A stretch of 42,614 nt of DNA from a virus (IMGVR_UViG_3300035180_001879:1-42614); one strand, 5' to 3'; shown: positions 20,067-42,614, numbered from the stretch's first letter. Numbers and translations: made by a program. Notes: a model not told the origin generated them from the sequence alone.

Positions 20067-20084
20067 CGTGTCTCCTAAGAAGGT

Positions 20085-22730: not shown

Positions 22731-22742
22731 TTTACACTCTCA

Positions 22743-23039
22743 TTACCTTTGACTAGCCGACCAGCGTTCTAGAAACACGGAAATTGCTGGAATCAGAAGT
22801 CGATCTTGTGCAGAAAAACCATTAAACGGATCAGTAATAGAATTGAAAATTGCTATAATCCAGAAGTAAGACGGATTTCCATATTCACGTGCAGCTATCA
22901 AATCCAATCGACCCTCTTCATCACCTGTCACTAAATGATATGAAAACGGAATATTAGTTAATGGAGGAAGCTTGATTACATTCAGAAGTTGTTTACCCCC
23001 AAAAGCCTGGGCTGGCCGCATAGTCCATGAAGATGACAT
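22743..23039 (-). CDS. Baseplate wedge gp53/LysM-like protein (98 aa)
   Basis: RLDLIAAREYGNPSYFWIIAIFNSITDPF...LLIP signature. Confidence 0.92.
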   Translation of the reverse strand: MSSSWTMRPAQAFGGKQLLNVIKLPPLTNIPFSYHLVTGDEEGRLDLIAAREYGNPSYFWIIAIFNSITDPFNGFSAQDRLLIPAISVFLERWSASQR

Positions 23040-23051
23040 AGGAAAAGTCTC

Positions 23052-24122: not shown

Positions 24123-24131
24123 GTTCTCTCC

Positions 24132-27269: not shown

Positions 27270-27299
27270 GACTTACTCCTTGGGGATTTTATTGCCGTG

Positions 27300-27336
27300 A
27301 AAATAAAACGGGGGAGCAAGAGTTCACCTGCTCCCC
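27300..27336 (-). terminator. Rho-independent terminator
   Basis: Minus strand GGGGAGCAGG-TGAACT-CTTGCTCCCC (10-bp stem, one G-U) followed by CGTTTTATTTT. Confidence 0.8.
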
Positions 27337-27355
27337 TATATATTCTCTTTGGTTA

Positions 27356-27586
27356 TTACAATACTACTGGGTTTGGCAACCCATGTACCCTTCCCTGTTT
27401 TTTTAACCCCGATAAATATCTTTGTTCTTGCTCTTGGGCTTTTTGTTCTTCTCGTTGTAGTATAGTAAAATAGTCCAAAAGCCGTTGAACAGGGAGGTTG
27501 TCAACGGCTTCTAAACCTAAGTGGGCATTAGAACAAACATACAAAACAAGCTTATCGAGACCTTCGGTGTCGATAGCCTCAATCAC
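27356..27586 (-). CDS. T4 gp51-like small tail/baseplate assembly protein (76 aa)
   Basis: HLGLEAVDNLPVQRLLDYFTIL plus charged helix; overlaps the gp26-like gene by 8 nt; precedes the tape measure. Confidence 0.6.
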   Translation of the reverse strand: MIEAIDTEGLDKLVLYVCSNAHLGLEAVDNLPVQRLLDYFTILQREEQKAQEQEQRYLSGLKKQGRVHGLPNPVVL

Positions 27587-28328
27587 CGAGGAGAAAAAAT
27601 TCCTTCGGTCTTAGCGAGAAGGAAAACTCGGTTATCTTCATACATTTATCGCATTTGATAGTAGCGTCTAAATCTAGTCCAGGGGTTACTTGAGTCAATA
27701 CCTTTTCAATGGCTCTCCAATCCAGATAATGAAGTTGGGTTAGGAACATGTGAGCTTCAACGGGCGTCAAGCCTTCAACATTCTTGACCATTTGCCAAAG
27801 TCTGAACACTGGCTCATTAGGCTCTGTGTTTGGCGCTTCTTTCTCTGCCTTAGCCACTTCGGTTTCTACTTCTTTTTCCATCTGCCTATTGAAAAGAGCA
27901 ATATCAATTCCTTTGTTGGCTTTTGGCAGATGTATATGTATTGGATAGCCAATCGTTTCGTCAAACTTCTTAACTGGCAATTCAAAAAGATTAGCAGAAG
28001 CACCTAGTTTTTGCCCACAATTAGGATTAGAGCATTCTATCTCGAAACTGTACTTTTCTCCAACTGTCAACGCACGTATCATATAAAACATGTAGATACG
28101 GTCGCCAGTCAGTAACAAGTCTGTATCAAATTTAGCTGCTCCTCCCTCTAGGCAGGACTGTAATATCTTGTCTATAAAGTAATCGAGGTTAGTAATTTTG
28201 GAGAAGTATCGCAACTCACTGACTGTGAGATGTCGAAGGTTGACTGTGGCAGGCACAGGTAAATTTGCAGCTTTATAATACGCAGCTCCTGGTAAATCAA
28301 ATGGTTTGTAATCGATAGATAGAGACAT
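27579..28328 (-). CDS. T4 gp26-like baseplate hub/tail assembly chaperone with Zn-ribbon cysteines (249 aa)
   Basis: LRHLTVSE...LLTGDRIYMFYMIRALTVGEKY...CSNPNC ... CDKC ... EFF. Confidence 0.82.
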   Translation of the reverse strand: MSLSIDYKPFDLPGAAYYKAANLPVPATVNLRHLTVSELRYFSKITNLDYFIDKILQSCLEGGAAKFDTDLLLTGDRIYMFYMIRALTVGEKYSFEIECSNPNCGQKLGASANLFELPVKKFDETIGYPIHIHLPKANKGIDIALFNRQMEKEVETEVAKAEKEAPNTEPNEPVFRLWQMVKNVEGLTPVEAHMFLTQLHYLDWRAIEKVLTQVTPGLDLDATIKCDKCMKITEFSFSLRPKEFFLLGD

Positions 28329-28373
28329 CGTAATACCCTTTCCTTTCTTCGTGGTTTATAGGTTTGCCTATTA

Positions 28374-28385
28374 ATAATAGCGAAA
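28374..28385 (-). promoter_or_regulatory. Candidate late promoter element TTTCGCTATTAT (copy 1)
   Basis: Exact 12-mer found in three intergenic gaps; here upstream of the gp26-like gene. Confidence 0.6.
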
Positions 28386-28403
28386 ACAGTAAATAGCAGC
28401 TAA

Positions 28404-29117
28404 TCAAGCCGTTACGTAATCTGTACGATTGAGATTTGGCGAGTTTTCCCTTGTTACGTAGCTACTACGATTATTATTGTTAGCCCCACCAAATCCAGCA
28501 AAGTAGTCTGGATCAAGCGATGTTGGTGTTACGTTTTTGTTAGAGTCTGAACTTGCTGGTAACTGATTATCCGAGGAACTTTGTGCCACTAAAGAATTGT
28601 TTATTTCCCCAGGTAGCACAACTCTGTCAGGTAACACGGTCAAACTTCCCATCAATATTCCTCCTTCAGACTGATAAGTCAATTGTGATACTGAGGCGGA
28701 CATAATTTGGCAATTATATAATTGCCATGTACCTAAGTTTTCACCCCTGCCTGACAGATGGCTTATCTCAACATTGAACCTATACAAGTCTTTATTGTAG
28801 ACGTGTCCAGGCTGAAATTGAGAGGTAGTAAATTCTGCTTGTCGCTTGACTAGGTCATAAAACGGATTAGTAACAGTGTCCTGCATATAGAAACTCATTG
28901 AGCTTTCGCCAAAAGTCACTTTGCTAATGCTCCTATTAAAGGCGGTTCCATCCCACCACTCATTTGCGGCGAACGTAACTGTTGGTAAGCTGACCTCGGC
29001 TAAATTTTGCTCAAACCACCAGGGGGAATCAAAGTGCTCAGGAGTAAAGATAAACATAGCTACAAAACGGTTTACCCGCAAATATTCATTTTTCATGTTA
29101 TCAAAAGCGGTAGGCAT
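28404..29117 (-). CDS. Second gp19-like tail tube-fold protein (minor tube/gp54-like)
   Basis: YLRVNRF...VSLPTVTF...Y.FNVEI...WQLYNC tube motifs plus a Ser/Asn-rich tail; ATG at 29117 preferred over GTG at 29129. Confidence 0.8.
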   Translation of the reverse strand: MPTAFDNMKNEYLRVNRFVAMFIFTPEHFDSPWWFEQNLAEVSLPTVTFAANEWWDGTAFNRSISKVTFGESSMSFYMQDTVTNPFYDLVKRQAEFTTSQFQPGHVYNKDLYRFNVEISHLSGRGENLGTWQLYNCQIMSASVSQLTYQSEGGILMGSLTVLPDRVVLPGEINNSLVAQSSSDNQLPASSDSNKNVTPTSLDPDYFAGFGGANNNNRSSYVTRENSPNLNRTDYVTA

Positions 29118-29196
29118 AGACGACACCACTCGAAAAAGCAGTATAAAGAGGGGGAGGGGGTGGAGATTTTTCCGCCCCCCTCATTAACAGTTGCTA

Positions 29197-29799
29197 TTAT
29201 ACTCGTCCTATAGAGGAGGAGCCAGCATTCGGTTCAACATTAGCATAATCAAATCGCCAAGTAACGTTTAATTCAAGCGGCGCACCGTCAGAAGCCATAT
29301 CAAGCGAGCCAGTGTCAATGCTCATTGGCCAAGCATTATACAAATGCCACGTCTCTGCGGGATTAGTAACATCCAAATCTGGACCTAGAATAAGCACATC
29401 TACATTGTGCTTGTAGTCGTATGGCGCGCCCATAGCCCCCATAGCTAGGGAGTTTGTGTTGGTAGGACCTGGATTGTAGATTAACTTGTACCAGCCTAGT
29501 ACAGACTGCATGATATTAAACGTATCGCTCCTGCGATCTCCAGGCCCAAACAGGTAGTCATAAAAATTGCATGTCCACGTTTCCCAAGTCGGCTTACCTG
29601 CCACAAACCACGGAGTGTTCAAGTGATGAATGGGTTGCTCAGACACAGCAAACTTTGGTCTAGCAGAAGCCTTAACTGCCATGGATAGAGTACGTCCAGA
29701 TGCCCCAGGAACATCAGGAAACACTATCCAAAAGCGGTTCTGCCTTTTGAGTTCTGATGTCATTTGTTGCTGTAATTCGCTGTTAAATGTGATAGCCAT
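29197..29799 (-). CDS. Major tail tube protein, T4 gp19-like (200 aa)
   Basis: ELKRQNRFW...ARPKF...VAGKPTWETWT...YKHNV...WHLYNAWP...LDMAS...WRFDYA; strong AAGGAG; follows the sheath gene. Confidence 0.93.
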   Translation of the reverse strand: MAITFNSELQQQMTSELKRQNRFWIVFPDVPGASGRTLSMAVKASARPKFAVSEQPIHHLNTPWFVAGKPTWETWTCNFYDYLFGPGDRRSDTFNIMQSVLGWYKLIYNPGPTNTNSLAMGAMGAPYDYKHNVDVLILGPDLDVTNPAETWHLYNAWPMSIDTGSLDMASDGAPLELNVTWRFDYANVEPNAGSSSIGRV

Positions 29800-29880
29800 T
29801 TTTGCTTCTCCTTGTGCTATAATGTCGCTAATCCCCGTTCCTTTTTGCTAAATTGCACGTATCCTTTTCATTCAATTTCC

Positions 29881-32673
29881 CTAGAAAGTTGTTGTGCTAG
29901 CTAGTGGTTGTGCGGGAGAGCGAACAATCACATCATACACCTGTACTTCGATATCTGGAACTGGCTGCAATTCGATAACGAAATGTGCTCTTGACGGTAC
30001 GGCGGCTACGTCCTCAGCAGTAGTAGCATCAGAAAGCCGGAATGCATAAAGACCGCGCTTTGTTTTTATAGAATCAAAAACGGGGTTAATTGTAAGCAGA
30101 AGCCGCCTACGTTCAAGCGCGTCATTGGGGTTAAACTCAGAAGCTAGCGCAAGATTTTGCACCGCCAATTCAGCACTCGCAAGCAATCTGCGAACACTAA
30201 AATAACTAAGCATTGACGCGGTTTTTTGCATGGTCTTGTTGCCCCACACAGTAATCGTACCAGAAATCTTGGCAATGGGGTTGATTTGTACTGAGTATAG
30301 ATTATCCCTATCATTGAGAGTAGGATAGTTTTCGAGTTCTAGGAATTCGGGTACAAGACCCCTGCGCATACCCGCAGCGCCAGCATAAGGAACTTCTGAA
30401 GCGTCAGTCACAGCCAACGCTCTTAGTGCGGCAATTGTAGGCGGCAGCCACACATTGACCTGATTGTAGCTGTCATAAATCTTTCCATAGTTGTAATACA
30501 GGGCTGAATAAGACGAATCAATTCCGCCAAAATCTGCCGAGCGGTAATTGACAGCATCATTTGGGGAAAGACCAGCAGGTACATCAAGAACGCAGACAGA
30601 AAATTTACGTCCCGTGCAAACTTGGTCCATTACCGTTGCTAGTGCTGGTACTGATGACACACCAGGAATAGCTAACACGTCGTAGGGAAGCGTACCATCA
30701 AAAGATTCGATAGCCTGCGCCGAGGCAAGCAAATCTGAATAAGCAGGATCTACAGAGGCTTTGGCTGCGGCGTTAGCGGCACTGATATTGGCAATGTAAT
30801 CAGTGTAGTCTACATCAAACGTACCATCATAACCTCCAATAAGAGTGGAGACATAATATTGTACCGGAACATTGCTAATGGAGCTGACTGCAAAAGACGC
30901 CAAATTTGTGCTAGTGCTTGCTGGTAATGCGCTGAGCTTAACGTAGGATGAATATGTATCTACGTCCTGCACTAAGTCAGACTCTGACATATTTATCCAG
31001 CGCTCTAAAGCGTTACCAGAAGAATCGTACACTAGCAACTCATACTCTGAAGAGTTTTGGTTAAATGAGGAATAAATTTGATACCCATTCCCCCATGTTC
31101 CACGACCCTTGCTAACTGCGGCATATCTATCAAAGTCAGCAAGAGTATAATAGTAATACTTGGTACCGAGTGCTAGCTTGTACATATACTGTCCAGTAAT
31201 GGGAGTTTGTGTGGTAGTTTGACTGACCGCCGCGTTGCCTACTATACGCCAAAGCGCGGTGCCAGAAGGATTGATGTGCGTGGACACTAGATACTGTCCA
31301 TTTTTGACTGGAGCAGTAAGACTGTCCGAAGTGTAGGCTCCAGCATCAGGAACAGGAGAGGCTGTTACACCAACCACAGCATACAGAGTATCTCCGACTG
31401 CAAGAGGAGACGAAGAACCACCTACGATAGTGTTGAGATTAGAAAGCGAGCCTGTGGTATCGTTAGTAGCAAAAGTATCAAAAATGTATTCCGAACTTGC
31501 ATTGCCAGTGAGGGCATCGATAGACACTAGATGTGCATACTTGCTACTAGCTACACCATTAAGACCCAAAGTGATAGCAGAGGTGGGGTGTTTACGTGCT
31601 AAAAGCGTAGGTGTATATGATACCGCATCAGTAAAAGAGCCAGTAGTGCTAACGCCTAGTGCCACAAAGGTATTTGTCGAATCAATGTAGTGAGTAACAT
31701 TTCCAGAAGAACGATAAATAACCCAAAGGTTATAGCCAGCGGGGAGTGCAGGAAGGTTGGAGAATGTAACAGTAGACTTGTTCTCTTTCACTGGGCCTAC
31801 ATTTATTCCCTGTGACAAATACGAATGTGCAGTAATATTATCAAATGTGCCGTCAATGCTATAGGCATAAGCCACTCGGTACACTACTTTGTCTGTACCT
31901 GGTTCAGAAGAATTAACTGTGACTGTAACTCCGCTAGCGTCTGGACCAAACGCGCCTAGTGGATTTGTGTAGGCAGTAACATAACGCAAAGTGTTATCAA
32001 GTGATGTCCAAGAAGCCGTCGCCATATTAGCTTCAGCATCATTGACAGTCAGTGTAGTAGTTGCTGGTGTAGCGGTAGTTTTAGGGAAGAGAACGTTTGA
32101 CGAAAACGCAGGCTCTGCGTGCCCTACATATACGTCTGATGCAATAGTAAGCGGGTAGCTAGGACCTATGCTCAAAGTATTTTCAAAGTCCACGCCATAG
32201 GAGTCGTAGACGTATGTATACTGATTAGCAGTTCCCGCATATCCCGTAATATACAGCTTAAATAAGCCACGAGAATTGTCAATGGGTTTAAGATATATTA
32301 CAATAGGTTTCTGTGCCGCAGAGTTTAGCAAATAACTAGAATTAGTTACGGGTATTTCTACCACACTCGAAGATACGAAGTTTACGTTGACGCTTGTTCC
32401 TATTTTGACAAACTTAGTCGATGTAACGCGCTTGTAATACAACTGGTTGCCGAAACTCAAATACTCCATAGCACCATACGTTCCTGGCATACTCGGTTGC
32501 TGAAAGCCGAACATCTTAACAAAATTTGCTTTCGTAGTAGTCAGGATGGGCTTGTCGTCTCTACCTTGACTAGCTTCGCCAAGAATCAAATAAGGACGAC
32601 CAAACGCACTGCTTGCTACTGCACTCTGGTCTAGTTCATTGATTACTACTTGTGGAGAATTATAAGTGGTCAT
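29881..32673 (-). CDS. Contractile tail sheath protein, gp18-like, with large insertions (930 aa)
   Basis: SPQVVINELDQS N-terminus; GTWGNG; SSYSALYY; AAGMRRG; RDNLYSVQINPI..VWGNKTMQ...VRRLL; FNPND. Confidence 0.96.
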   Translation of the reverse strand: MTTYNSPQVVINELDQSAVASSAFGRPYLILGEASQGRDDKPILTTTKANFVKMFGFQQPSMPGTYGAMEYLSFGNQLYYKRVTSTKFVKIGTSVNVNFVSSSVVEIPVTNSSYLLNSAAQKPIVIYLKPIDNSRGLFKLYITGYAGTANQYTYVYDSYGVDFENTLSIGPSYPLTIASDVYVGHAEPAFSSNVLFPKTTATPATTTLTVNDAEANMATASWTSLDNTLRYVTAYTNPLGAFGPDASGVTVTVNSSEPGTDKVVYRVAYAYSIDGTFDNITAHSYLSQGINVGPVKENKSTVTFSNLPALPAGYNLWVIYRSSGNVTHYIDSTNTFVALGVSTTGSFTDAVSYTPTLLARKHPTSAITLGLNGVASSKYAHLVSIDALTGNASSEYIFDTFATNDTTGSLSNLNTIVGGSSSPLAVGDTLYAVVGVTASPVPDAGAYTSDSLTAPVKNGQYLVSTHINPSGTALWRIVGNAAVSQTTTQTPITGQYMYKLALGTKYYYYTLADFDRYAAVSKGRGTWGNGYQIYSSFNQNSSEYELLVYDSSGNALERWINMSESDLVQDVDTYSSYVKLSALPASTSTNLASFAVSSISNVPVQYYVSTLIGGYDGTFDVDYTDYIANISAANAAAKASVDPAYSDLLASAQAIESFDGTLPYDVLAIPGVSSVPALATVMDQVCTGRKFSVCVLDVPAGLSPNDAVNYRSADFGGIDSSYSALYYNYGKIYDSYNQVNVWLPPTIAALRALAVTDASEVPYAGAAGMRRGLVPEFLELENYPTLNDRDNLYSVQINPIAKISGTITVWGNKTMQKTASMLSYFSVRRLLASAELAVQNLALASEFNPNDALERRRLLLTINPVFDSIKTKRGLYAFRLSDATTAEDVAAVPSRAHFVIELQPVPDIEVQVYDVIVRSPAQPLASTTTF

Positions 32674-32690
32674 CTTTCACCCCTATAAGG

Positions 32691-33080
32691 TTAATTCTTG
32701 TGACTTGTTTTTGAAGCCGACTTAAATGTGGGCTTCAAAGCTCCCTTTCCTCTTTCTTGCTTTTCTTTATTTTCTACTGCTGAAGTTACTATAGCAGACT
32801 CTTCAGAAACTGCTGAAGCTGCCTCTGTTTTTTCGTCGTTTGCTTGCGGCATCTCAGCTTCTGTTTCGGAGGTTTTTGCCGTGGTAGGAATCTCTGCCTG
32901 CAGCAAATCGACGGTAACAAATACGCCTGGCGCACTCTTTGTCAATACGGGATTCTTCGTCTTCGCGTCAACAACAAAGGATTTACACGAAACTCCTTTT
33001 AATACAAATGTCTCTCCAGCATAATTTAGAGCCACAAAACCAGGCGATTTTTTTCTGAAAGTTACAATTTTTTGTGGCAT
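32691..33080 (-). CDS. Hypothetical protein upstream of the sheath (~129 aa)
   Basis: ATG at 33080 follows a purine-rich RBS and is preferred over the track start at 33137; charged low-complexity C-terminus. Confidence 0.7.
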   Translation of the reverse strand: MPQKIVTFRKKSPGFVALNYAGETFVLKGVSCKSFVVDAKTKNPVLTKSAPGVFVTVDLLQAEIPTTAKTSETEAEMPQANDEKTEAASAVSEESAIVTSAVENKEKQERGKGALKPTFKSASKTSHKN

Positions 33081-33153
33081 AATTTTACCCTTCCCTTTCC
33101 TTTCCTCATTGTGAGAGTTATAAAATCCTCTCATCAAAGGTATATTCTCGACA

Positions 33154-33186
33154 CAAAAAGAAAAAGCGTCCCAAAAAGGGGCGCTT
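33154..33186 (-). terminator. Probable Rho-independent terminator
   Basis: Minus strand AAGCGCCCC-TTTTT-GGGACGCTT (one mismatch) followed by TTTCTTTTT. Confidence 0.55.
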
Positions 33187-33218
33187 AAGGATTTAGTAAA
33201 ATTTTTGCTGTTTGACTT

Positions 33219-33485
33219 TTATTGTATAGTAACGTCCTCTACTGTGTGACTGATTTTTGTTATTTCACCACCAAACTCGTTGACCATATACTGAATATCA
33301 GCCAACTCGTCCACAACGTTAGTGTTTTCAGTTCCTAATTGTGTGAGTCTTCTTGCACCTAACTCATCAGCAGAAGGAATATCGTGTTCGATTCGTTCCT
33401 CGTCTGTTTGCAGGAAATGAACTGGCACGAGTTCAGTTACCGACAAGATAATTCGATGTGTAATTACTGCGGTTTTGGCTTTCAT
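33219..33485 (-). CDS. Hypothetical protein (~88 aa)
   Basis: GAGG precedes ATG at 33485, which avoids the overlap created by the track's TTG start at 33521. Confidence 0.65.
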   Translation of the reverse strand: MKAKTAVITHRIILSVTELVPVHFLQTDEERIEHDIPSADELGARRLTQLGTENTNVVDELADIQYMVNEFGGEITKISHTVEDVTIQ

Positions 33486-33504
33486 AATTAGCCTCAACAC
33501 TAGC

Positions 33505-33774
33505 TTATGCGGGACCGTCAACTTGTGCCGACTTCATTGCTAATTGTTCTTGTAACATATCAATCGTCTTTTGTGCCTGTTCAAGATTTTTCTGTAAATT
33601 GTAAACATTTATTTCTAGAGACGACTTCTCGGAATGAAGTTGTGCAATAAGTTGTCCCCTGTTCAAATACATCTGAGTTACTTGGTCTAGCTGAGACCTA
33701 AGCTGTTCTACCTCTGTGGGCTGTTGTGGAGGCTGTGTTACTGTGTCTGGTGACGCAGAACGATTATCTGACAT
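33505..33774 (-). CDS. Small coiled-coil protein (89 aa)
   Basis: AAGGAG RBS; Gln/Leu heptad pattern. Confidence 0.75.
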   Translation of the reverse strand: MSDNRSASPDTVTQPPQQPTEVEQLRSQLDQVTQMYLNRGQLIAQLHSEKSSLEINVYNLQKNLEQAQKTIDMLQEQLAMKSAQVDGPA

Positions 33775-33880
33775 TTTGTTCTCCTTGTGGATTACTCCCC
33801 ATAAGGGGCTTCCTGTTTTAGCGTCAAGATAGACGCGATATGAAAACCTTTCAGCGACCTGCCTACATGTTCTCTCAGTT

Positions 33881-33892
33881 ATAATAGCGAAA
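33881..33892 (-). promoter_or_regulatory. Candidate late promoter element TTTCGCTATTAT (copy 2)
   Basis: Exact 12-mer just after the GT2 stop codon, upstream of the coiled-coil gene. Confidence 0.6.
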
Positions 33893-33898
33893 GTTTCA

Positions 33899-34633
33899 CT
33901 ATATGCTATGGTCTCCCCATTTTTCTATGTATAGCTGTCTATTCAATTCCCAAGAGCGATAAACTGCATCTGCGTCTACCTTACCAAAAGATGCAGATGC
34001 GGGGATGTCTCCAAAACCATGTTGCACAGTTACAAGCGGAGTGACCCCTAGCCTATAACCCCGTAATTTAGCTCTCCTGCACCAATCCATGTCATCACAT
34101 CCATAACCAGTAAACCTTTCGTCTAGTGGCCCTGTGTCGTCCCAAGCTCGACGTGCTATGCAAACAGCAGCAAAACAAATAGTACCTAGAGGGCGAATAG
34201 AGTAATCTTCTCTTTTGTTTGCGTACAACAACTGAGAGCCATTTCCAATCTTACCTTTAGAAATTGCTAAAGCTATTGCTCCATAGGGATGATACTTAAT
34301 CTCTGCAGGCTGACTATGGAGCAACTCTTCTAGCTTTGGAACAAAATCTATAGTATCAAAAATTATGTCGTCATTAAGCAATAGCAAGTCGCTGTTCTTG
34401 TCTAATGCGGCTACGCACAGATTTGTGTTCCTAGCAAACACAAACGGCTTAGGCATCGGTAAGATATTAACACCTACAGCTTGATATTTAGCTTTGCACT
34501 CTTCCGACAGTCCATCGTCTCCAACTACAATTTCACACACGTTTTGCCAATCGGGCTGCATTTCAAATAGGTTGTCTAGCAGCCTAGTCAAATGCTCGTC
34601 ATATTTGCTAAGAATAGTTATGCCTAGCTTCAT
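33899..34633 (-). CDS. Glycosyltransferase family 2 (GT-A fold)
   Basis: IVVGDDG, FVFARNTN, LLLNDD, GPLDERFTGYGCDDMDWCRR motifs; ATG at 34633 preferred over the track's 34654. Confidence 0.92.
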   Translation of the reverse strand: MKLGITILSKYDEHLTRLLDNLFEMQPDWQNVCEIVVGDDGLSEECKAKYQAVGVNILPMPKPFVFARNTNLCVAALDKNSDLLLLNDDIIFDTIDFVPKLEELLHSQPAEIKYHPYGAIALAISKGKIGNGSQLLYANKREDYSIRPLGTICFAAVCIARRAWDDTGPLDERFTGYGCDDMDWCRRAKLRGYRLGVTPLVTVQHGFGDIPASASFGKVDADAVYRSWELNRQLYIEKWGDHSI

Positions 34634-34712
34634 GTCAGGTCTTGACTCCCACAAAAAACAACCCTAATCTGCCTTGCTGTTAAGTTTATAGCTTTTACGT
34701 CCTCGACAAAGC

Positions 34713-35642
34713 TTATAACTGATTTGTACATATCATCCTCGTGATGCCGTCAGTTAGCGTGACTTGCGGAGTCCATCCTGTAGCGGACACAAATGAACTG
34801 ATATCGGCACAAGAATGCTTGATATCCCCTTGCATTTCTGGCTCAAACACAACCTCCACAGACTCACCTAAAGCATTATTAAATATAGCAATAACATCAA
34901 GCAAGGAGATTCCTATTCCTCGTGCTACATTATAGATGCCTCGTAGGTTTACAGCAGAAGTATAGGCTTCTACAGCATCCGAGACATACAAAAAATCTCT
35001 TGTTTGTTTTCCATCACCATAAATAGTCAACGGCTCTCCTTTTGCAATCTTGTTAGTAAAAATGGCAATAACTCCACCATCTTCTGTGCCTCTTTGCCGA
35101 GGACCATATACGTTAAAAAATCTCAATGAAACCCCGATAGAAGAAGCCGCTACAGCAGCAGTCGCTAGATATTTAGATAAAGCATAAGGAGAAGGCCATT
35201 GAATGTCAGAATGGGCTGCGCTTTCCACAAGTTTTTCTTGTGAGTCGCTATTTCCATATTCAGCCGCAGATCCCGCAAACACAAACGAGGTAAAGCCCAA
35301 TTTCTCTGCCTTGGACAACAATGTTACTGTAGAAACATAGTTTACTAGCATAGTGCGACTAGAACTCAGAATCGATGTCTGCACACTAGAAATTGCTGCC
35401 AAATGAAAAATTGTATCTAGTTCAGGATATTCAGTTTTCAAATCATCTAGCAATTCGGGTTCTGTAACTGATCGACCTACAAAATAAAAAGCTGGATATT
35501 TCAGCGCGTTTACAAGGTTATCCATTGAGCCAGTTGACAAATCATCTACGCCTACCACTAGCCAATTATCAGCAAGTAGGCGGTCTACTAGGTGACTTCC
35601 AATAAATCCTGCGGCTCCTGTCACTACACAAGCTTTAGCCAT
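34713..35642 (-). CDS. NAD-dependent nucleotide-sugar epimerase/dehydratase (extended SDR, GalE/WbpP-like; 309 aa)
   Basis: TGAAGFIGS, HLAA, YALSK (YxxxK), LRFFNVYGPRQ, IYGDGKQTRDF; overlaps the upstream gene by 8 nt. Confidence 0.95.
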   Translation of the reverse strand: MAKACVVTGAAGFIGSHLVDRLLADNWLVVGVDDLSTGSMDNLVNALKYPAFYFVGRSVTEPELLDDLKTEYPELDTIFHLAAISSVQTSILSSSRTMLVNYVSTVTLLSKAEKLGFTSFVFAGSAAEYGNSDSQEKLVESAAHSDIQWPSPYALSKYLATAAVAASSIGVSLRFFNVYGPRQRGTEDGGVIAIFTNKIAKGEPLTIYGDGKQTRDFLYVSDAVEAYTSAVNLRGIYNVARGIGISLLDVIAIFNNALGESVEVVFEPEMQGDIKHSCADISSFVSATGWTPQVTLTDGITRMICTNQL

Positions 35643-38493
35643 TGTATGCTCTTAAAATGCTTCCTAGCATTGGTTGAAAAACTTGCAATATCTTGTTAGC
35701 TGTATCGTTGATATTTTCATCGATAAATTGTACTAAGGGGTTGTTATTATATTCTCCACAATACACTGGCAGATTTCGCATCAAGACGGGCATCTGCCAA
35801 CTCAACGCCTCTTTTATGACCAAAGGATTTGTTTCCATTGTAGACGAGAATAGGAATAAGTCCATCGCTCCATAAAAATCATCCAAGTCTGAGACCTCTC
35901 CCCAAATCACACAATTGCTAGGTTTATTCTCCATCAACGGTTTCCAATAATTAGCAAAATTTGGAGCTTGGTTTCCTACAAAATGAAACACGTATTGAGG
36001 CAACAACCTAGCTATCTCGAAAATCTCTCCTTGATTTTTCCAAGGAGCAAAGAGACCGACATTTAGAATGTGCTTCTTGCTGGCATCCAGTTTCAATGAG
36101 TTTAGCGTGGTGGTTCTGTCGGGACGAATATGTGGCTCCAACGTATATATTACTTTCTGTATTGGAATGCCTAGATTAGCAAACTCTTCTGCATGATACT
36201 GTCCTACGACAGCAAAAACATCTGGCATAAACCGCTTTGTCGAAGCTTTGGTGGCAGAGTTATGTGTAGTCTCCACAAGCTTATACGTCCTAGCCTTACT
36301 GTAAATAAAGCTAGCTATATCGTCAGGCAGGAAATTTTCAGGAGCCTCTTGCATGTGAACGATGGTGGGCTTAAATGCTTCCAATATAGCAGCTAGTTGA
36401 TCAAGTTTGTTTTGATTGTCGTTAAGAGTATAAAACTTTGAGAGAGCTTTGATTTTATTGCGTTGCACAACATAGGCGTCCCCAAGAAAATTGTATTCGA
36501 CATAGCCCGTTTTGTGCCCTGCTGCAACCAAGTCTCTGATACATGCGTAAACGTATTGAGGCATACCGCCAGTGCTGCAATGCGGGGCAATAAATAATAC
36601 TCGCTTCTCGTCGTTAGTAGTGATAATCTGACTTGTTTTGGGCTCTCTAACGCCGTCTATTAGTGATTCCCCACCGTCCTCGTGTCTGATGTACCGTTCG
36701 TATGTAATGGCTATGCGCTTATTAGCGGAAGCAAACACTTCGTTATACCAAATATCCGCGCCATACCAAGGAACGGTCTTAAAGCTATGCAATAGAAATT
36801 CTCTACTGCGCCGAGGAAACACTATAAATTGGAGTCCGATTATCTTGTTGGTTAGATACATATCCTCACTGAGACGTTGTAATTCCTCTGACTGCAATAC
36901 GCCAGTAAATACACAGTCTTTATATCCCATGCTGAAATAATCTATTGCATTTGCTATTGCTGTATCGCAGCACCGCAGTAACGTCTCATAAACCTGCTTT
37001 ACGGGCATATCAAGTTGTACGTCTCGCTCACACAAAATCAAGAAATCAGTATCATCAGAAAACTCTTCTTCTACTGCTCGTTTATGCGCAGCCCAACATC
37101 CGTAATGCCCAGGTTTGAGAGGTTGTCCATCTTGCCCCGTTGGATGCAAAGGCTTCAAATCGGGAAGCGTGGTTGTGTAGCCATTATTGTGCTGGGTGTA
37201 CTCAATCCCATATTTGGCTAGCTGTGAAAGGCTTGCGATGCTCGCTTTTTCTACTGGGTCTTCTGGACGCGATAGCAAATGAACGAGTTTTATTTTATAA
37301 GGACATTCTTGCTGTGTCATTTCAGTTTGTTCTATAGGTTTGCCAAACACAATATTATTTATGGCTTCCTTCACCATCTCTGGCGTAATACTAGTGGAAC
37401 ACTCAAAGTTCTTTTCTCGTGGGCACCAATACCAATTACCCTTTTCTAGTGGATACTTTTCCTCATTAAAACAGCCATGACAAACGGAAGGATTGTGAAT
37501 ACGGTAACAGTCAGTCATTTCCGAAATGGGATCGGTAAACCCCGAAATCATTATTACGGGGACGCCTAAAGCCCACGCTAGCCAGCCTGGACCAGTAGAC
37601 ACGGTAATCAAAAACTCTGCGTGCTGAATAATGTTTACTGCATCTTCAATTGCTGTCCCATTCATTCTAACTACATTATCAAGTGACGAGGGCTCCTTAC
37701 TAACTGAAACAACAGTGTAACCGAGCGACGCCAAATAGTCTACAATTGTTTGCCAGCCTCCAGGAAATAGCCAATGTTTGCCATAGAAAGTGGAAAACTC
37801 TGATATAGCGACGTACTTTCCCATTACCAATCTTGGCGCTGACGACCTAGCTACTTTAGTTCTAATCTCAGTGAATGGCAGACCCAAATAGTCTGAGGCT
37901 GCTTTCTGCAAGGGAAGGTGTCTCCACCCGTTCTTGTTTCTGTTTCTGTCCTTTTCGACCACGCCAATATGATAACGAGCATAACAATCGGAACTCATTT
38001 GCCAAGGTTCTTTGAACTTGATATTTGGATACTCGGACTTAAAGAGATTGTTCCAAAATGTTAGTGCTGTAACTTTACATCCATGACGTACTCCGAACTC
38101 CTCAATATATGGCATCCAAGCAATTGTGTCGCCTAAGCTCTTGCTATCAAGAAGTATTTCTACTTCCTTGTCGTGCACATTGAACTCATGCACAAAAACC
38201 AACACGCCGTTTTCATGCACTGTAATACGCCAATTAACATAATACTTCGGACCCGTTTCTGCCCAATGATTGTATTCTAAATCGGTTTCATATACAACCT
38301 TATTAGTATCTTTATCCATAAATGTTACATGATACAGCGCGTTGGTGTCATTGGAGGGCAATTTAGTACCAAGAAAACTAGCGTCTCCTTTTAGGATTTC
38401 TACGCGAGCGCCATTTAGAAACGTAAGCTTTATTGTGTTACCAAAAGGAGTAATTGCAGATAGTCTATCTGTTGACAAGGCAGTCTTTCCCAT
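35635..38493 (-). CDS. Three-domain glycosyltransferase: autotransporter O-heptosyltransferase (Aah/TibC-like) + GT25-like + GT4 (952 aa)
   Basis: Domain 1: SKSLGDTIAWMPY, WLAWALGVPVIMISGFT..E, CHGC...WCPR...FECSTSITPEMV (four-Cys iron finger). Domain 2: GHYGCWAAH...FLILCERD. Domain 3: APHCSTGGMPQY, NVGLFAPWKNQ, DLFLFSS..ETNPLVIKEAL. AGGAG RBS. Confidence 0.85.
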   Translation of the reverse strand: MGKTALSTDRLSAITPFGNTIKLTFLNGARVEILKGDASFLGTKLPSNDTNALYHVTFMDKDTNKVVYETDLEYNHWAETGPKYYVNWRITVHENGVLVFVHEFNVHDKEVEILLDSKSLGDTIAWMPYIEEFGVRHGCKVTALTFWNNLFKSEYPNIKFKEPWQMSSDCYARYHIGVVEKDRNRNKNGWRHLPLQKAASDYLGLPFTEIRTKVARSSAPRLVMGKYVAISEFSTFYGKHWLFPGGWQTIVDYLASLGYTVVSVSKEPSSLDNVVRMNGTAIEDAVNIIQHAEFLITVSTGPGWLAWALGVPVIMISGFTDPISEMTDCYRIHNPSVCHGCFNEEKYPLEKGNWYWCPREKNFECSTSITPEMVKEAINNIVFGKPIEQTEMTQQECPYKIKLVHLLSRPEDPVEKASIASLSQLAKYGIEYTQHNNGYTTTLPDLKPLHPTGQDGQPLKPGHYGCWAAHKRAVEEEFSDDTDFLILCERDVQLDMPVKQVYETLLRCCDTAIANAIDYFSMGYKDCVFTGVLQSEELQRLSEDMYLTNKIIGLQFIVFPRRSREFLLHSFKTVPWYGADIWYNEVFASANKRIAITYERYIRHEDGGESLIDGVREPKTSQIITTNDEKRVLFIAPHCSTGGMPQYVYACIRDLVAAGHKTGYVEYNFLGDAYVVQRNKIKALSKFYTLNDNQNKLDQLAAILEAFKPTIVHMQEAPENFLPDDIASFIYSKARTYKLVETTHNSATKASTKRFMPDVFAVVGQYHAEEFANLGIPIQKVIYTLEPHIRPDRTTTLNSLKLDASKKHILNVGLFAPWKNQGEIFEIARLLPQYVFHFVGNQAPNFANYWKPLMENKPSNCVIWGEVSDLDDFYGAMDLFLFSSTMETNPLVIKEALSWQMPVLMRNLPVYCGEYNNNPLVQFIDENINDTANKILQVFQPMLGSILRAYNG

Positions 38494-38658
38494 TGCTTAA
38501 ACTCCTATGAGAGATGAGCACAAAGGTCCATAAAAGATACGCAAAATTAATAGAAATGCGATTTCAAATAGAAGATAAGCCCACGAAAAGTTAGATGCAG
38601 GAATAAGTCTGATGCCTTATCTCCTATTGAGTGACGTGCTCGTGTGCTCTTTTCGTTT

Positions 38659-38670
38659 ATAATAGCGAAA
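38659..38670 (-). promoter_or_regulatory. Candidate late promoter element TTTCGCTATTAT (copy 3)
   Basis: Exact 12-mer about 165 nt upstream of the glycosylation operon start. Confidence 0.6.
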
Positions 38671-38710
38671 CCCCAAATGGTCGGCGTACATAGAAAAGAC
38701 GATGTTTTGG

Positions 38711-38836
38711 ATAACTGTCCCCGTCAATGTTTCGCTCTGGTTTAATCGCAAGCTAGTTCATAGTCTGCAAGCTTCCTATAGCAATCCCATTCACCGTTGC
38801 TACGATTGTGGGTCTACTAGGCGAGACGTATTCCCG
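38711..38836 (-). pseudogene. Decayed copy of the 3' end of the 76-aa gene (39184..39309)
   Basis: Gapless 126-nt manual alignment, 81/126 identical; translates REYVSPSRPTIVATVNGIAIGSLQTMN*LAI..., with an internal TAG and no start codon. Confidence 0.8.
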
Positions 38837-38842
38837 TTCTCT

Positions 38843-39172
38843 TTATGACTCCGTTGTAATTGGCTCTGGGTGCTGCGCTGCTTTAGCTTTAGCCCACGCC
38901 ACCATCGTTTCTGCCATTTGCCGCAGTTGATCATCTAGCGCTAGGATAGCCTGCTGTGTGAGTCCCGCTGCTATCATATCCTGTACGGTGAAATCGTAGC
39001 GTACGTTGGATTCGGGCTTGTGATATTGCTGCCCTGCTGCGTTGACATCTCCTGGCGCAGATAATTCACCTGCAGCCTCGAATATCGTACAGCTAGCACC
39101 ATCACGGTGAAGTTGAATTTCTTGGATGTAATGCTCTACTGTTTTAGAGATTGTTTGACTATCGTATCCCAT
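38843..39172 (-). CDS. Hypothetical protein, possible fibre chaperone (109 aa)
   Basis: GGAGG RBS; small gene downstream of the fibre cluster; function inferred from position only. Confidence 0.7.
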   Translation of the reverse strand: MGYDSQTISKTVEHYIQEIQLHRDGASCTIFEAAGELSAPGDVNAAGQQYHKPESNVRYDFTVQDMIAAGLTQQAILALDDQLRQMAETMVAWAKAKAAQHPEPITTES

Positions 39173-39183
39173 TGTGACCTCCC

Positions 39184-39414
39184 TTAACTATTTCCGTTAA
39201 TCTGTTGCACAGACCCGATTGACACCCCGTTTATGGTCTGCACACTCTGCATTGCTACCTGGTTTACCGTCGCCACGGTTGCGGGTCCACCAGGCGGGAC
39301 GTACTCCCAATACCCACTTGCAATATCTTGCGTAGCACCCCCATAGGTGCGCTTATAAAGGGTCGAGCTAGTAAGCCGTCCAGAAGGGCATCGGCGAAAA
39401 ACGTTGGTAGCCAT
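39184..39414 (-). CDS. Small hypothetical protein with 11-aa C-terminal repeats (76 aa)
   Basis: TAATG coupling to the upstream gene; VATVNQVAMQS/VQTINGVSIGS/VQQING repeats. Confidence 0.65.
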   Translation of the reverse strand: MATNVFRRCPSGRLTSSTLYKRTYGGATQDIASGYWEYVPPGGPATVATVNQVAMQSVQTINGVSIGSVQQINGNS

Positions 39415-40232
39415 TACGCGCTCGCAATCTCTAGTGTCAACTCAGGAAGACCCGTTGACGTGCTATCAGCATTAACCATCAAGTACAGCGCGGAATCAGT
39501 ATAGACAATCGGCATCCCAGTTTTCAGCAGGTCGTGAACGTCTCCCCAGTTTGCAGTTACGATTCTGCCTTGCGTCCATAGTGGTCGGAGAATCAGGATG
39601 TTAAATGCTCCAGCGGTCATTGCCGTTCCGCCGTTGGTCACGATGACGCTTTCAAGTTTCTGAATCCCCGTGTCGCCTGACTGGAGCGCGATGGGAAGCA
39701 GTCTTCCCAGCGTTAGAGACGCGGCGGCGAGCGCGGCGGTGATAACTGATGTCCGACCAGTAACGCCAGCAGAGTTGGTGTATGTCAATTGCACTTGCCA
39801 TGCTGTTCCTGTCGCAAATGCCGTGCTGACCTCTAGCCAAAACTCGAAACCCTGTCCAGTCCCTTCTGGGGAGCGCCCCAAGATGCTCGGCTGGCTGGAT
39901 AGCGTGGTTGTACCACCAGCATAACTGTACGCTCCAGCCTTATATACCATGTCAAATATGGCCAGCCGCGAAGCGACAGTATTGGCAAACTCGACCTTGC
40001 TCAGATACCCCGTTCCCGATGAAAAAAGAATATTGGGACATCCAGCCGTCGCGTCAGTCGGGACCACTCCTGCCGAGGTGCTAGTACCAGCAAGAACGCC
40101 AGCGCCAGGGTCTCCCGCAATGTCAAACACCGAGAAGGGGGTGGCTGCTAATGAAGTTCTGGTCGCCGTTTTTAGGATGCGCACCCGCTGCTTACTAGCT
40201 GCGATATACTGGTCTAAACTGCTTATTGCCAT
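39414..40232 (-). CDS. Putative virion structural protein, jelly-roll-like (272 aa)
   Basis: GGAGG RBS; LTYTNSAGVTGRT...LQSGDTGIQ...ILRPL pattern of phage fibre-associated proteins. Confidence 0.7.
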   Translation of the reverse strand: MAISSLDQYIAASKQRVRILKTATRTSLAATPFSVFDIAGDPGAGVLAGTSTSAGVVPTDATAGCPNILFSSGTGYLSKVEFANTVASRLAIFDMVYKAGAYSYAGGTTTLSSQPSILGRSPEGTGQGFEFWLEVSTAFATGTAWQVQLTYTNSAGVTGRTSVITAALAAASLTLGRLLPIALQSGDTGIQKLESVIVTNGGTAMTAGAFNILILRPLWTQGRIVTANWGDVHDLLKTGMPIVYTDSALYLMVNADSTSTGLPELTLEIASA

Positions 40233-40241
40233 TTGTACCTC

Positions 40242-42614
40242 CTATACGTGGGTAATGTAATCTGGGCTTGGGCAGAAGTAGATAACAGTCGCAGTCAGCG
40301 CGTACCCAATTACTCGAATTGCCGCCCCAGACGTTGTTGGTTGCGTCGCAGTGATTTGCCCTGCAGTCTCACTCATGTACAAGACTGCCCCAGGCGTCCA
40401 TGACCAAGCATCGTTTCTGACGACAGAATTAGGAAGGGCAACACTCATTGCCTGCCCGCTAGTCTTACTCTCCAGGGCTATAGCGACCATTCCAGCATAG
40501 GTGCTAATATTGTTAGCGTCGGTCTGTACCCATTGCCCAGAGGAGTTGAGAATCACGAGGTCCATAATAGTGATAGACGCCCCAGCCTGCAAGGCGTTCA
40601 TTGTTGGTCCTATCGCGGTGAGGTTGCTACCTGGCAGAGCAGATATATTGGCGGTTCCTGACGTACCACTTGTTCCTGAAGACCCATTACTACCTGATGT
40701 TCCTGAAGTTCCTGAAGACCCATTACTACCTGATGTCCCTGATGTGCCAGAACTACCAGAAGTTCCTGATGTACCGCTCGTACCCGCATTTGTCCAAGAC
40801 AATATACCAGAGCCATTATTAGTTAAAACGGTATTTGTCCCGCCTTGTGCAGTTGGTAATGTATACGTAATATCAGCAGATTGGTCTCCGCCTTGGAAAA
40901 TGGTATGATAGGTTGGAGATGTTCCACCCTCAAGAATACCAAATGTACCCTCTACAGTGAGTTTTTGTCCAGGAGTAGTTGTCCCGATACCAACTCTGTG
41001 ATTAGCACTATCCACAAAAAGAGAATTGGTATCTACGGTAAGATTGGTAGAAGTTAATCCCAAAGCTGCTAAAGATCCAAATCCTGTGCTTCCATCTGTT
41101 ACTTTCAAAGTTTGTGTCGCACTTCGTAAAAGTCCTACATCGTCTGTTCCAGCAACTGCACTTTCAAAACCTAACTGCTTTGTATTTGCTATTGAAATGT
41201 AATTAGCAGGTGAAAGAGTCCCAATACCCATACGGTGAGTATTGGGATCTATGACAAACATTTGTTGGTCAATTGCGTCTCCAAACACAAACTGTCCGCT
41301 ATTATAAATATAATTGCCAACAAATTTAGGCAATCCTGCGCTAGCATTTGCGTAAACTAGTGTCCAGGCACTGTCGTCGTTAGCAACAATAGCTCCAACT
41401 GTAGGAGCCCCCGCCCAATTTCCGCCTGACTGTCCTAGAACTTGGAATCCAGCTTGTGGAGTGGCTGTCCCAACTCCCAAAGAATTGCTTATAATTAAAC
41501 TATTAGATGGGGCAGCAATGGAACCCGCATAACTTCCTATTGCCACTCCACCCGCTACGTCTAATTTGGACTTAGGCTGACTTGTCCCTAGTCCCAAAGC
41601 AAAGGTAGAAGTAAAGACATCTTGAACAGCGCCGCTATTATTTTTTATTTGTATTAAATCGCTTGTACTCTGCCCAGTTCCGGCTTGCACAATTAAATTG
41701 GTAGCATAAGTGCGATTGTATATTTGAGCCGTTCCTCCAACATCTAATGCAACGCCAGATGTAATAGAAGTGGTTGCTATCCCAACTGGAACTGCCGATA
41801 TTATATTTTGGGGACTCAATTGTACAGCCATGGAGGTTGGAATAGCCGGAGGAGACCCAGAAGCGCCTGGAGGATACCGAAGAACTTCCCCAGAATATGA
41901 AAAATCAAGATAGTTTCCACTAGATACTGGACCAGAGATACAATATAACCGATACCCAACCGCACCATAAACCCAAGTAAAATATGGTATGATTCCATAA
42001 CCATCTGGGATGTTCAGTGCAACAGGAGAAGAAACTATTCCTACGTTCCCTGCTGCATCTCTAGCAGCCACAACAAAAGTGTAGTTACCTGCGGAATATA
42101 TACCTGAAGGATTGAGAGCTATGCTGAAGTTACTTGGGGCACTTAACGGAACACTATAAGATAAAGCAATAAGTTTTCCGTCCTTATCTAGTGTCATTAA
42201 CGATGATCCGTTATTCAACCATTGACTATGAATGACACCAGAAGTGACAAGGGCATTTTTTGTATCATAAACGTAAGCCGTTGCCGTCGCGCTGTCTGCA
42301 ACGTCAGGCGTAAGGGACATTTTGCTAGTAGAGCCACCTAAGACGGACAGAGCAGAAAGACCAGCACTAAATATAGGAGCACCGTTAATAACAGTCTGAG
42401 GAATGGTTTGGTCTAAAGCTAGAGCATTTAAGGCTCCATCAGCACCTGAAGTACCCGATGTTCCTGACGTTCCAGAAGTCCCTGGCAAACCATCGATTCC
42501 AGAACTACCAGATGAACCTGAAGTTCCTGATGAACCATCGATTCCAGAACTACCAGAGGTTCCTGATGTACCAGAGGTTCCTGATGTACCAGAAGTTCCA
42601 GAAGAACCTGACGA
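40242..42614 (-). CDS. Tail/head fibre protein with Gly-Thr-Ser collagen-like tracts; 5' end outside the window (>=790 aa)
   Basis: Frame stays open from the track's TTG (42488) to base 42614; repeated (V/L/M)G(I/L/V)GT..P fibre motifs; two Gly-X-Y tracts. Confidence 0.88.
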   Translation of the reverse strand, partial: SSGSSGTSGTSGTSGTSGTSGSSGIDGSSGTSGSSGSSGIDGLPGTSGTSGTSGTSGADGALNALALDQTIPQTVINGAPIFSAGLSALSVLGGSTSKMSLTPDVADSATATAYVYDTKNALVTSGVIHSQWLNNGSSLMTLDKDGKLIALSYSVPLSAPSNFSIALNPSGIYSAGNYTFVVAARDAAGNVGIVSSPVALNIPDGYGIIPYFTWVYGAVGYRLYCISGPVSSGNYLDFSYSGEVLRYPPGASGSPPAIPTSMAVQLSPQNIISAVPVGIATTSITSGVALDVGGTAQIYNRTYATNLIVQAGTGQSTSDLIQIKNNSGAVQDVFTSTFALGLGTSQPKSKLDVAGGVAIGSYAGSIAAPSNSLIISNSLGVGTATPQAGFQVLGQSGGNWAGAPTVGAIVANDDSAWTLVYANASAGLPKFVGNYIYNSGQFVFGDAIDQQMFVIDPNTHRMGIGTLSPANYISIANTKQLGFESAVAGTDDVGLLRSATQTLKVTDGSTGFGSLAALGLTSTNLTVDTNSLFVDSANHRVGIGTTTPGQKLTVEGTFGILEGGTSPTYHTIFQGGDQSADITYTLPTAQGGTNTVLTNNGSGILSWTNAGTSGTSGTSGSSGTSGTSGSNGSSGTSGTSGSNGSSGTSGTSGTANISALPGSNLTAIGPTMNALQAGASITIMDLVILNSSGQWVQTDANNISTYAGMVAIALESKTSGQAMSVALPNSVVRNDAWSWTPGAVLYMSETAGQITATQPTTSGAAIRVIGYALTATVIYFCPSPDYITHV
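40653..40784 (-). repeat. Coding 9-bp-period repeat: 14 Gly-(Thr/Ser)-(Ser/Asn) triplets
   Basis: GTSGTSGTSGSSGTSGTSGSNGSSGTSGTSGSNGSSGTSGTSGT. Confidence 0.95.
42429..42614 (-). repeat. Coding 9-bp-period repeat: >=20 Gly-X-Y triplets, continuing past the window edge
   Basis: Uninterrupted GSS/GTS/GID/GLP/GAD/GAL triplets read directly from the sequence. Confidence 0.95.

Follow-up and report, generated by a model that had tools for sequence, protein, structure and literature searches.

A TibC-family glycosyltransferase fusion encoded near a Gly-Thr/Ser-Ser fibre in a contractile-tailed phage: a predicted virion O-glycosylation system

Why should a cluster of phage structural genes carry an operon of sugar enzymes? 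The question is raised by the viral stretch IMGVR_UViG_3300035180_001879:1-42614 (the window; 42,614 nt in full), a 42.6-kb fragment of a contractile-tailed phage with its structural genes all on the minus strand, in which four glycosyltransferase (GT) domains and a sugar epimerase are encoded between a fibre gene and the sheath gene. We consider it likely that the TibC-like domain of this operon primes serines in the Gly-X-Y tracts of the phage's own fibre, in the cytoplasm and late in infection, and that the GT25-like, GT4 and GT2 domains would extend the glycan, a proposal that draws on sequence, predicted folds and gene neighbourhoods. A preliminary description of this DNA had placed such an operon here, with a fibre about 2 kb away whose Gly-X-Y tracts are mostly Ser/Thr. 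Profile, fold and gene order bear this out: all genes of the locus are on the minus strand, the four GT domains are confirmed, the fibre stop lies 1,749 nt from the start of the GT gene, with three small open reading frames (ORFs) between them, and 27 of 35 triplets are GTS or GSS. The features concerned are the following.

40242–42614, minus strand: virion fibre gene, 5′ end missing, 790 amino acids (aa) visible, predicted acceptor (PF01391, 57 bits; PHROG tail-fibre matches via the repeats)
42429–42608, minus strand: Gly-X-Y tract 1, 20 triplets (10 GTS, 5 GSS), reaching the contig end (repeat scan)
40650–40784, minus strand: Gly-X-Y tract 2, 15 triplets (9 GTS, 3 GSS), immediately 5′ of the C-terminal domain (repeat scan)
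40245–40646, minus strand: fibre C-terminal domain of cement/neck-fibre type, likely trimeric (PF09956, E 8.7e-5; gp82 profile match; Atlas matches for a homologue)
35635–38493, minus strand: three-domain GT, 952 aa (profile scans)
37351–38337, minus strand: TibC/Aah-family domain, aa 53–381 of the 952-aa GT (TIGR04414; TibC alignment)
36634–37308, minus strand: GT25-like GT-A domain, aa 396–620 of the 952-aa GT (fold and homologues)
35659–36612, minus strand: GT4 domain, aa 642–938 of the 952-aa GT (PF00534 and PF13692 above cut-off; PF13439 below)
34713–35642, minus strand: NAD-dependent sugar epimerase, nearest to UDP-glucose 4-epimerases (PF01370)
33899–34654, minus strand: GT2-family glycosyltransferase, likely start ATG at 34633 (244 aa; weak match, E 6.7e-6; homologues with PF00535)

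The assignment of the first domain is supported by sequence and by fold. A search with the autotransporter strand-loop-strand O-heptosyltransferase model, proposed in the preliminary description, is positive, as residues 53–381 reach 256 bits against TIGR04414 (cut-off 200) and align to TibC with an E-value of 1.4e-47. The predicted model of this domain (predicted local distance difference test, 90) recovers the N-terminal β-barrel and the atypical GT-B fold, and matches 4RAP and 4RB4 with a template-modelling (TM) score of 0.92–0.93 and a root-mean-square deviation (rmsd) of 2.3, versus a TM score of about 0.5–0.6 for lipopolysaccharide (LPS) heptosyltransferases. The catalytic base and donor contacts are kept, with D122, T235, K239 and W304 corresponding to D110, T226, K230 and W305 of TibC. 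The four cysteines of the predicted iron finger are also retained (C338, C341, C357 and C365), and the position of TibC P300 is a serine, as in Aah.

The preliminary description had suggested that this domain and Gly-Thr/Ser-Ser proteins should co-occur across phage genomes, and they do so well beyond control levels. We scanned whole records with a DNA pattern encoding (G[ST][ST])4G, which is present in 32 of 48 enzyme-bearing viral records (longer contigs from about 96 enzyme-bearing loci, near-duplicates removed), in 1 of 40 sheath-selected controls (the longest-type contigs of 79 selected by sheath profile) and in none of 47 controls from 79 contigs selected by a proline-collagen pattern. 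For the enzyme set versus the sheath control Fisher's p is 6e-11, a value computed on records that are related to each other. All six enzyme-bearing IMG/VR records that are at least 90% complete contain the pattern, as do Mel-JY01 and LR756501. In the reverse direction, 14 of 48 tract-selected records (from the 50 longest of 60 contigs) carry the enzyme, compared with 0 of 47 proline-collagen and 1 of 40 sheath-selected records; the one enzyme and the one tract of the sheath control sit in separate, incomplete records. The domain is found in only 4 of 50,697 INPHARED records, and we estimate that about 1,800 IMG/VR stretches match the enzyme's patterns.

Individual viral loci illustrate the pairing in other settings. 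The nearest distinct enzyme (48%) belongs to an unrelated type of phage, in a locus (L313:2691-15281) where it comes after cement, major head protein and sialyltransferase-like genes and directly after the gene of an 830-aa GTS protein. In the Microcystis phage Mel-JY01 (PP395634.1; L015:2-3049), a plus-strand ORF of more than 1,000 aa encodes long GTS tracts, one of 149 triplets and some in register with Gly-Pro-Pro. Most of this ORF has been annotated as a pair of minus-strand 'hypothetical proteins', which look like its VPEVP shadow frame, and the only name given to the enzyme gene of this phage is 'methyltransferase FkbM'. With bS21 encoded and 35% GC in the stretch, the record is an odd fit for a Microcystis host.

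The same pairing is seen in cellular genomes. We built a tree of 160 domains (83 viral, 77 from GTDB), in which the Aah-containing clade comprises 40 tips, none of them viral (support 1.0, and SH-aLRT 100 in a subset of 73 tips). Its members are E. coli Aah-type, Burkholderiales and Selenomonadales enzymes with a full thumb and the TibC residue R286, and the window enzyme is placed outside it. A tract lies within 10 kb of the enzyme in 25 of 78 GTDB loci, some of them on contigs of metagenome-assembled genomes (MAGs) that are probably phage. Within the Aah clade this holds for 1 of 40 tips (9 of 40 have long SGG-rich neighbours), and outside it a tract is near 66 of 120 tips, or 22 of 37 among the GTDB tips. 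In Methylomicrobium oryzae RS1 (L412), a stand-alone enzyme scoring 326 bits faces the gene of an exported protein with 17 GTS-type triplets in a housekeeping neighbourhood (sigma-factor, protease and FtsH genes), and 13 of the 15 pattern matches of the 4.7-Mb genome fall in that exported GTS gene. All matches flank the enzyme in Bordetella sputigena (6/6) and in a Schekmanbacteria MAG (10/10); a Succiniclasticum genome of the Aah clade has no tract-pattern match genome-wide. Judged from gene neighbourhoods, this cellular adjacency breaks the phage-lineage confound of the viral co-occurrence. Small exported or lipoprotein-like proteins with 9–35 GTS/GSS triplets adjoin the enzyme at L412:11169-11870 and in L393, L394, L395, L405, L424, L429 and L455, in methanotrophs, Arenicellales and other Gammaproteobacteria, and several of them end in poly-Asp. 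These bacterial pairs are likely an undescribed protein O-glycosylation system.

The predicted acceptor is a fibre in which the tracts occupy aa 3–62 and 611–655, with 19 GTS and 8 GSS triplets and a single proline in 70 X/Y positions. The repeat is uninterrupted and matches PF01391 at 57 bits versus 27.2, the longest run in 20,000 shuffles of the protein is 8 triplets, and no run of at least four triplets occurs in the 30 other window ORFs scanned. Read depth over the tracts is several-fold above that of the flanks in four runs, as would be expected if more such repeats lay upstream or elsewhere and the assembly had broken within the repeat. The preliminary description had spoken of a tail fibre, a label that the C-terminal domain does not favour. 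The last 134 residues match the cement family PF09956 at 23.3 bits, slightly below the cut-off of 24 (E 8.7e-5), and a profile of 37 homologues of this domain matches aa 123–222 of the cyanophage A-1(L) neck fibre gp82 (E 9.3e-8), described in the available text of PMC10966104 as a trimer of 241 aa in a bead-chain neck fibre. A tail fibre thus appears no more likely than a neck- or head-type fibre that trimerizes C-terminally, right after tract 2.

Homologues place the tracts in a variable context. As none of the 16 longer homologues of the fibre middle region has a Ser/Thr or Pro Gly-X-Y tract, this region is a common fibre module. Gly-X-Y tracts occur in 12 of the 150 best C-terminal-domain homologues and contain proline in 5 of these, which lends weak support to a collagen slot at this position. 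Other proline-poor Gly-X-Y tracts, of GYS/GFS and GDT types, occur in the C-terminal domain homologues P0153, P0158, P0179, P0182 and P0263 and are possibly further glycosylated collagens. Across 640 distinct tracts, chosen in part by the GTS pattern, serine occupies 77% of Y positions, and up to 566 triplets follow one another without interruption.

From these observations a mechanism can be sketched. The acceptor would be the serine before glycine in the Gly-Thr/Ser-Ser tracts, because serine predominates at Y and the partners of TibC and Aah are rich in Ser-Gly-Gly. Transfer from nucleotide sugars would be cytoplasmic and belong to the late phase of infection, and the GT25-like domain would use UDP-Gal or UDP-GalNAc made by the epimerase. 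Since the ring-building thumb is lost (see below), the enzyme would not form a TibC-type dodecameric ring, an arrangement that would suit an extended chain over a β-helix. The glycan may stabilize a proline-free triple helix set in register by the trimeric C-terminal domain, and would coat a neck- or head-type fibre. Known phage collagens are stabilized by proline and charge, according to the available text of PMC3368898, and both stabilizers are nearly absent from the window's tracts, which makes the helix-stabilizing role plausible; Thr glycosylation converts a (Gly-Pro-Thr)10 coil to a triple helix, as the accessible part of PMC11923368 describes. The tracts may instead adopt a polyglycine-II bundle or coil, and the glycan may serve, as the preliminary description proposed, in shielding, LPS mimicry or adsorption.

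The expression signals and the surrounding genes add to this picture. Read in order, the genes are the fibre, three small ORFs, a 349-nt gap, the 952-aa GT, the epimerase (overlapping the stop of the fusion GT by 8 nt), the GT2, three small ORFs, the sheath, two tube genes and the baseplate hub. The preliminary description noted a 12-mer common to the GT operon and a tail gene, and this sequence, TTTCGCTATTAT, is indeed present exactly three times, always intergenic and on the minus strand (0.25 expected; 0 of 100 shuffles reach 3), the tail gene being the baseplate hub (PF12322). The copies precede the GT operon, an 89-aa ORF and the hub gene, with no other sites, and the motif is a putative late promoter. 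Scans for sigma-70 promoters (29 found versus 29.0 expected) and for terminators are both at chance level. The remaining features of the region are as follows.

39414–40232, minus strand: conserved phage protein of 272 aa, unassigned to any named family, lying between the fibre and the GT operon (phrog_427, E 1.6e-5; Atlas clusters 90–97% viral)
38843–39414, minus strand: two small ORFs of 76 and 109 aa without a family match in profile scans
38659–38670, minus strand: TTTCGCTATTAT, putative late promoter of the GT operon (exact motif count)
33881–33892, minus strand: second 12-mer copy, 5′ of the 89-aa coiled-coil ORF at 33505–33774 (exact motif count)
29881–32673, minus strand: tail sheath (PHROG)
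29197–29799 and 28404–29129, minus strand: tail-tube genes (PHROG)
28374–28385, minus strand: third 12-mer copy, 5′ of the T4-type baseplate-hub gene at 27579–28328 (PF12322; exact motif count)

The two tandem tail-tube-like genes at window 28404–29799 both match phrog_4542; the sheath that precedes them is 930 aa long and contains a large insertion. The distal tail genes include one for an RCC1-repeat protein of 770 aa (window 4592–6904), where GC is raised; a 1005-aa protein with BNR/sortilin-like repeats (window 7274–10291; GC 0.55 at 8001–9000) is a possible sugar-binding or hydrolase tail component. Relatives sought via the tube protein consist of one contig (L378), 100% identical to window 19200–35915. 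In two runs a lower-depth variant (window 33916–34705 and 39182–42413) lacks most of the GT2 gene, and what is left of that gene is connected to fibre-like pieces, which suggests a second related phage with the cassette before a fibre gene, the joints themselves being uncertain. The source records of the two closest GT2 homologues have longest contigs (34,604 and 76,758) equal to those of two close fusion-protein homologues, which suggests that the GT2 and the fusion GT travel together. The 120 fusion-GT homologues listed vary in domain order and cargo (FkbM and other methyltransferases, GT2, epimerase).

Granting that the tracts are glycosylated, the priming enzyme could be another domain of the same operon. 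In such a scheme, which we regard as unlikely, the GT25-like or GT4 domain would add the first sugar (e.g. galactose, by analogy with COLGALT1 acting on collagen), leaving its capping or extension to the TibC-like domain. The profile scans give no direct match for aa 396–620, and the GT25 profile PF01755 matches 13 of 23 aligned members at E ≤ 0.1 (best 1.7e-6), the window's own domain being unmatched. By fold, the best match of this region is COLGALT1 aa 336–574 (the C-terminal domain; Z 18.5, rmsd 3.1, 209 residues aligned), ahead of bacterial β-1,4-galactosyltransferases (Z 14.2), and COLGALT1 and the Mimivirus collagen glycosyltransferases R655/R699 are the top structural matches. At 13–14% identity, however, this may reflect mere GT25 membership, and COLGALT1 acts on hydroxylysine, whereas the phage tracts have no lysine. 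A GalE-like epimerase is co-encoded, its score being 136 against the GalE model (cut-off 262) and 124 against the HldD model TIGR02197 (cut-off 274.6), both under cut-off, with UDP-glucose 4-epimerases as its best PDB matches; PDB sequence searches with the GT4 and GT2 gave no significant match. Of 83 viral loci, 49 have a related GT4 fused to the enzyme or nearby, against only 8 of 77 GTDB loci, and a GT25-like domain is near the enzyme in only 19 of 83 and 4 of 77. In methanotrophs, moreover, it is a stand-alone TibC-like gene that flanks the GTS proteins.

The other explanations move the acceptor away from the tracts. Capsid, sheath or tube proteins could be the ones glycosylated, as in mycobacteriophages, with the fibre tracts a linked but separate trait: many structural proteins of the window contain 18–22% Ser+Thr, 34 enzyme loci have sheath-type genes no more than 10 kb away, and tract-free enzyme-bearing phages exist. 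We hold this, too, to be improbable, if anything slightly more so, as it leaves unexplained both the enzyme–tract adjacency in cellular genomes and the near absence of both traits in sheath-selected phages. That the operon is a mobile host-takeover cassette altering host LPS or surface proteins (superinfection block or serotype change) seems quite improbable. The TibC fold is related to that of LPS heptosyltransferases, GT25 includes LPS enzymes, and a copy in the viral contig L001 lies in an accessory tRNA region; yet the window domain resembles protein-acting TibC far more closely and keeps its barrel and iron finger, the operon sits among virion genes and has its upstream motif in common with a baseplate gene, and no flippase or polymerase match occurs among the 29 ORFs scanned. 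Glycosylation of phage DNA against restriction is very improbable. Although DNA-modifying phage GT4 and GT2 enzymes are known (available text of PMC12619734), no base-modification gene is found among the ORFs scanned in this genome fragment, the TibC family acts on protein, and the link to a peptide repeat would be unexplained.

Several observations weigh against priming of the fibre tracts by the TibC-like domain, beginning with the enzyme itself. The position of TibC R286 is A285 in the phage enzyme, and the thumb has 14 residues versus 24 in the Aah-type reference and lacks the Phe-Val (F265/V266) tip. TibC uses R286 to contact adenine and the thumb to assemble its dodecamer, and needs both for activity on TibA, as set out in the accessible portion of PMC4358343. 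R286 is present in 32 of 83 viral tips and in all 43 tips with a 24-residue thumb; because 14 of the 44 viral tips linked to a tract still have this arginine, its loss is not coupled to the presence of a tract. With both of these elements lost, the phage enzyme is best viewed as a TIGR04414 family member by sequence but not a canonical autotransporter heptosyltransferase, and no autotransporter match, as expected of an adjacent β-helical substrate, appears among the window ORFs in profile scans. At the locus, three ORFs and a separate putative promoter lie between fibre and enzyme, and the visible tracts total only 35 triplets. In the wider sample, 16 of 48 enzyme-bearing records are without the tract pattern, and the enzyme is present without any tract, even with a looser pattern, in LR756504 (636 kb) and in a 66-kb record that is 79% complete. 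Records found with the window's protein alone have a tract in only 3 of 9 cases, and tract-selected loci contributed 7 of the 21 rows in the search alignment, so that the 32 of 48 may be inflated. Conversely, 34 of 48 tract-bearing records are without the enzyme (mostly fragments, one 84% complete), and the records as a whole are mostly fragments, mutually related and not independent. Finally, the L001 copy is 95.2% identical over 3,773 nt (fusion GT and epimerase) and begins 46 nt after a 12-tRNA array, without the 12-mer, with a GT2 remnant only and with no tract in 19 kb (6% complete). On this evidence the cassette is mobile and need not adjoin a fibre. The L001 cassette (L001:9920-13857) belongs to a different large phage with KamA, TROVE-like and deoxyribosyltransferase genes, and its GT2 remnant is 150 nt long.

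The preliminary proposal of fibre glycosylation thus holds in part: co-occurrence supports a TibC-family enzyme for the Ser/Thr tracts, but neither the heptose donor nor the tail fibre stands as first worded. The replacement of R286 by alanine, an epimerase nearest UDP-glucose 4-epimerases and the scarcity of heptose genes in the phages all speak against ADP-heptose as stated. Among 37 enzyme-bearing viral records, gmhA has 2 matches, 1 over cut-off (in the tract-free LR756504), and rfaE domain II has 6, 1 over cut-off; the latter is over cut-off in all five enzyme-bearing bacterial genomes examined. This domain is common in Gram-negatives. We consider ADP-heptose and another nucleotide sugar about equally probable as the first donor. 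In LR756504.1 the gmhA gene (430182–430640) lies 27 kb from a stand-alone TibC-like gene, with no GTS tract, and this record may hint at another acceptor. The earlier step to a Gram-negative host is therefore weak. A purine-rich motif upstream of 21 of 23 genes (a loose pattern, with no shuffle control) argues mildly against a Bacteroidota host. The gene for bS21 is carried by 10 of 37 other enzyme-bearing records; the available text of PMC9723584 treats bS21 as a trait of phages predicted to infect Bacteroidetes.

Parallels with known systems are close at some points only. With TibC–TibA and Aah–AIDA-I of E. coli the phage system has in common a score over the family cut-off, the barrel and GT-B fold, the catalytic and iron-finger residues and a Ser/Gly-rich repeat partner nearby. 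It differs in being phage-encoded, fused to GT25-like and GT4 domains, without R286 and the thumb and outside the Aah clade, and its partner is a Gly-X-Y fibre rather than a β-helical autotransporter. Mycobacteriophages likewise have GTs predicted to decorate the virion, with glycans at the C-termini of capsid and tail-tube subunits (Freeman et al. 2023, as summarized in the available text of PMC12619734), whereas here a TibC-family enzyme is paired with a repeat tract on a fibre. In BclA of Bacillus anthracis and the cuticle collagen of vent worms, a hydroxy amino acid also stands at Y and glycosylation is proposed to replace hydroxyproline; these collagens, as far as the accessible part of PMC11923368 covers them, have threonine at Y, keep proline and use other enzymes, in contrast to serine at Y, Thr/Ser at X and almost no proline in the phage tracts. 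For gp82 of A-1(L), a family match to the fibre C-terminal domain, the available part of PMC10966104 makes no mention of glycosylation. We found no paper linking phage virion glycosylation with the TibC family among open-licence papers and preprints; virion glycosylation in mycobacteriophages and TibC in bacteria are each already known.

More speculatively, and on balance doubtfully, proline-free (Gly-Thr/Ser-Ser)n 'serine collagens' may be a distinct triple-helix class whose folding depends on prior dense O-glycosylation by a TibC lineage that forms no dodecamer, with phages and some bacteria swapping enzyme and tract as a portable tag and sugar replacing hydroxyproline. If priming of the fibre tracts by the TibC-like domain is correct, widespread uncultured phages would build glycoprotein fibres with an enzyme family studied so far only on enterobacterial adhesins, virion glycosylation would extend past actinophages and giant viruses, and the TibC family would gain a second acceptor type. 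There would be a practical benefit as well, since so simple a repeat could serve as a tag for dense glycosylation. As the pairing is present in the phage isolate Mel-JY01 and in a cultured methanotroph, it is testable without an uncultured phage, and the idea that sugar stands in for hydroxyproline in microbial collagens would become directly testable.

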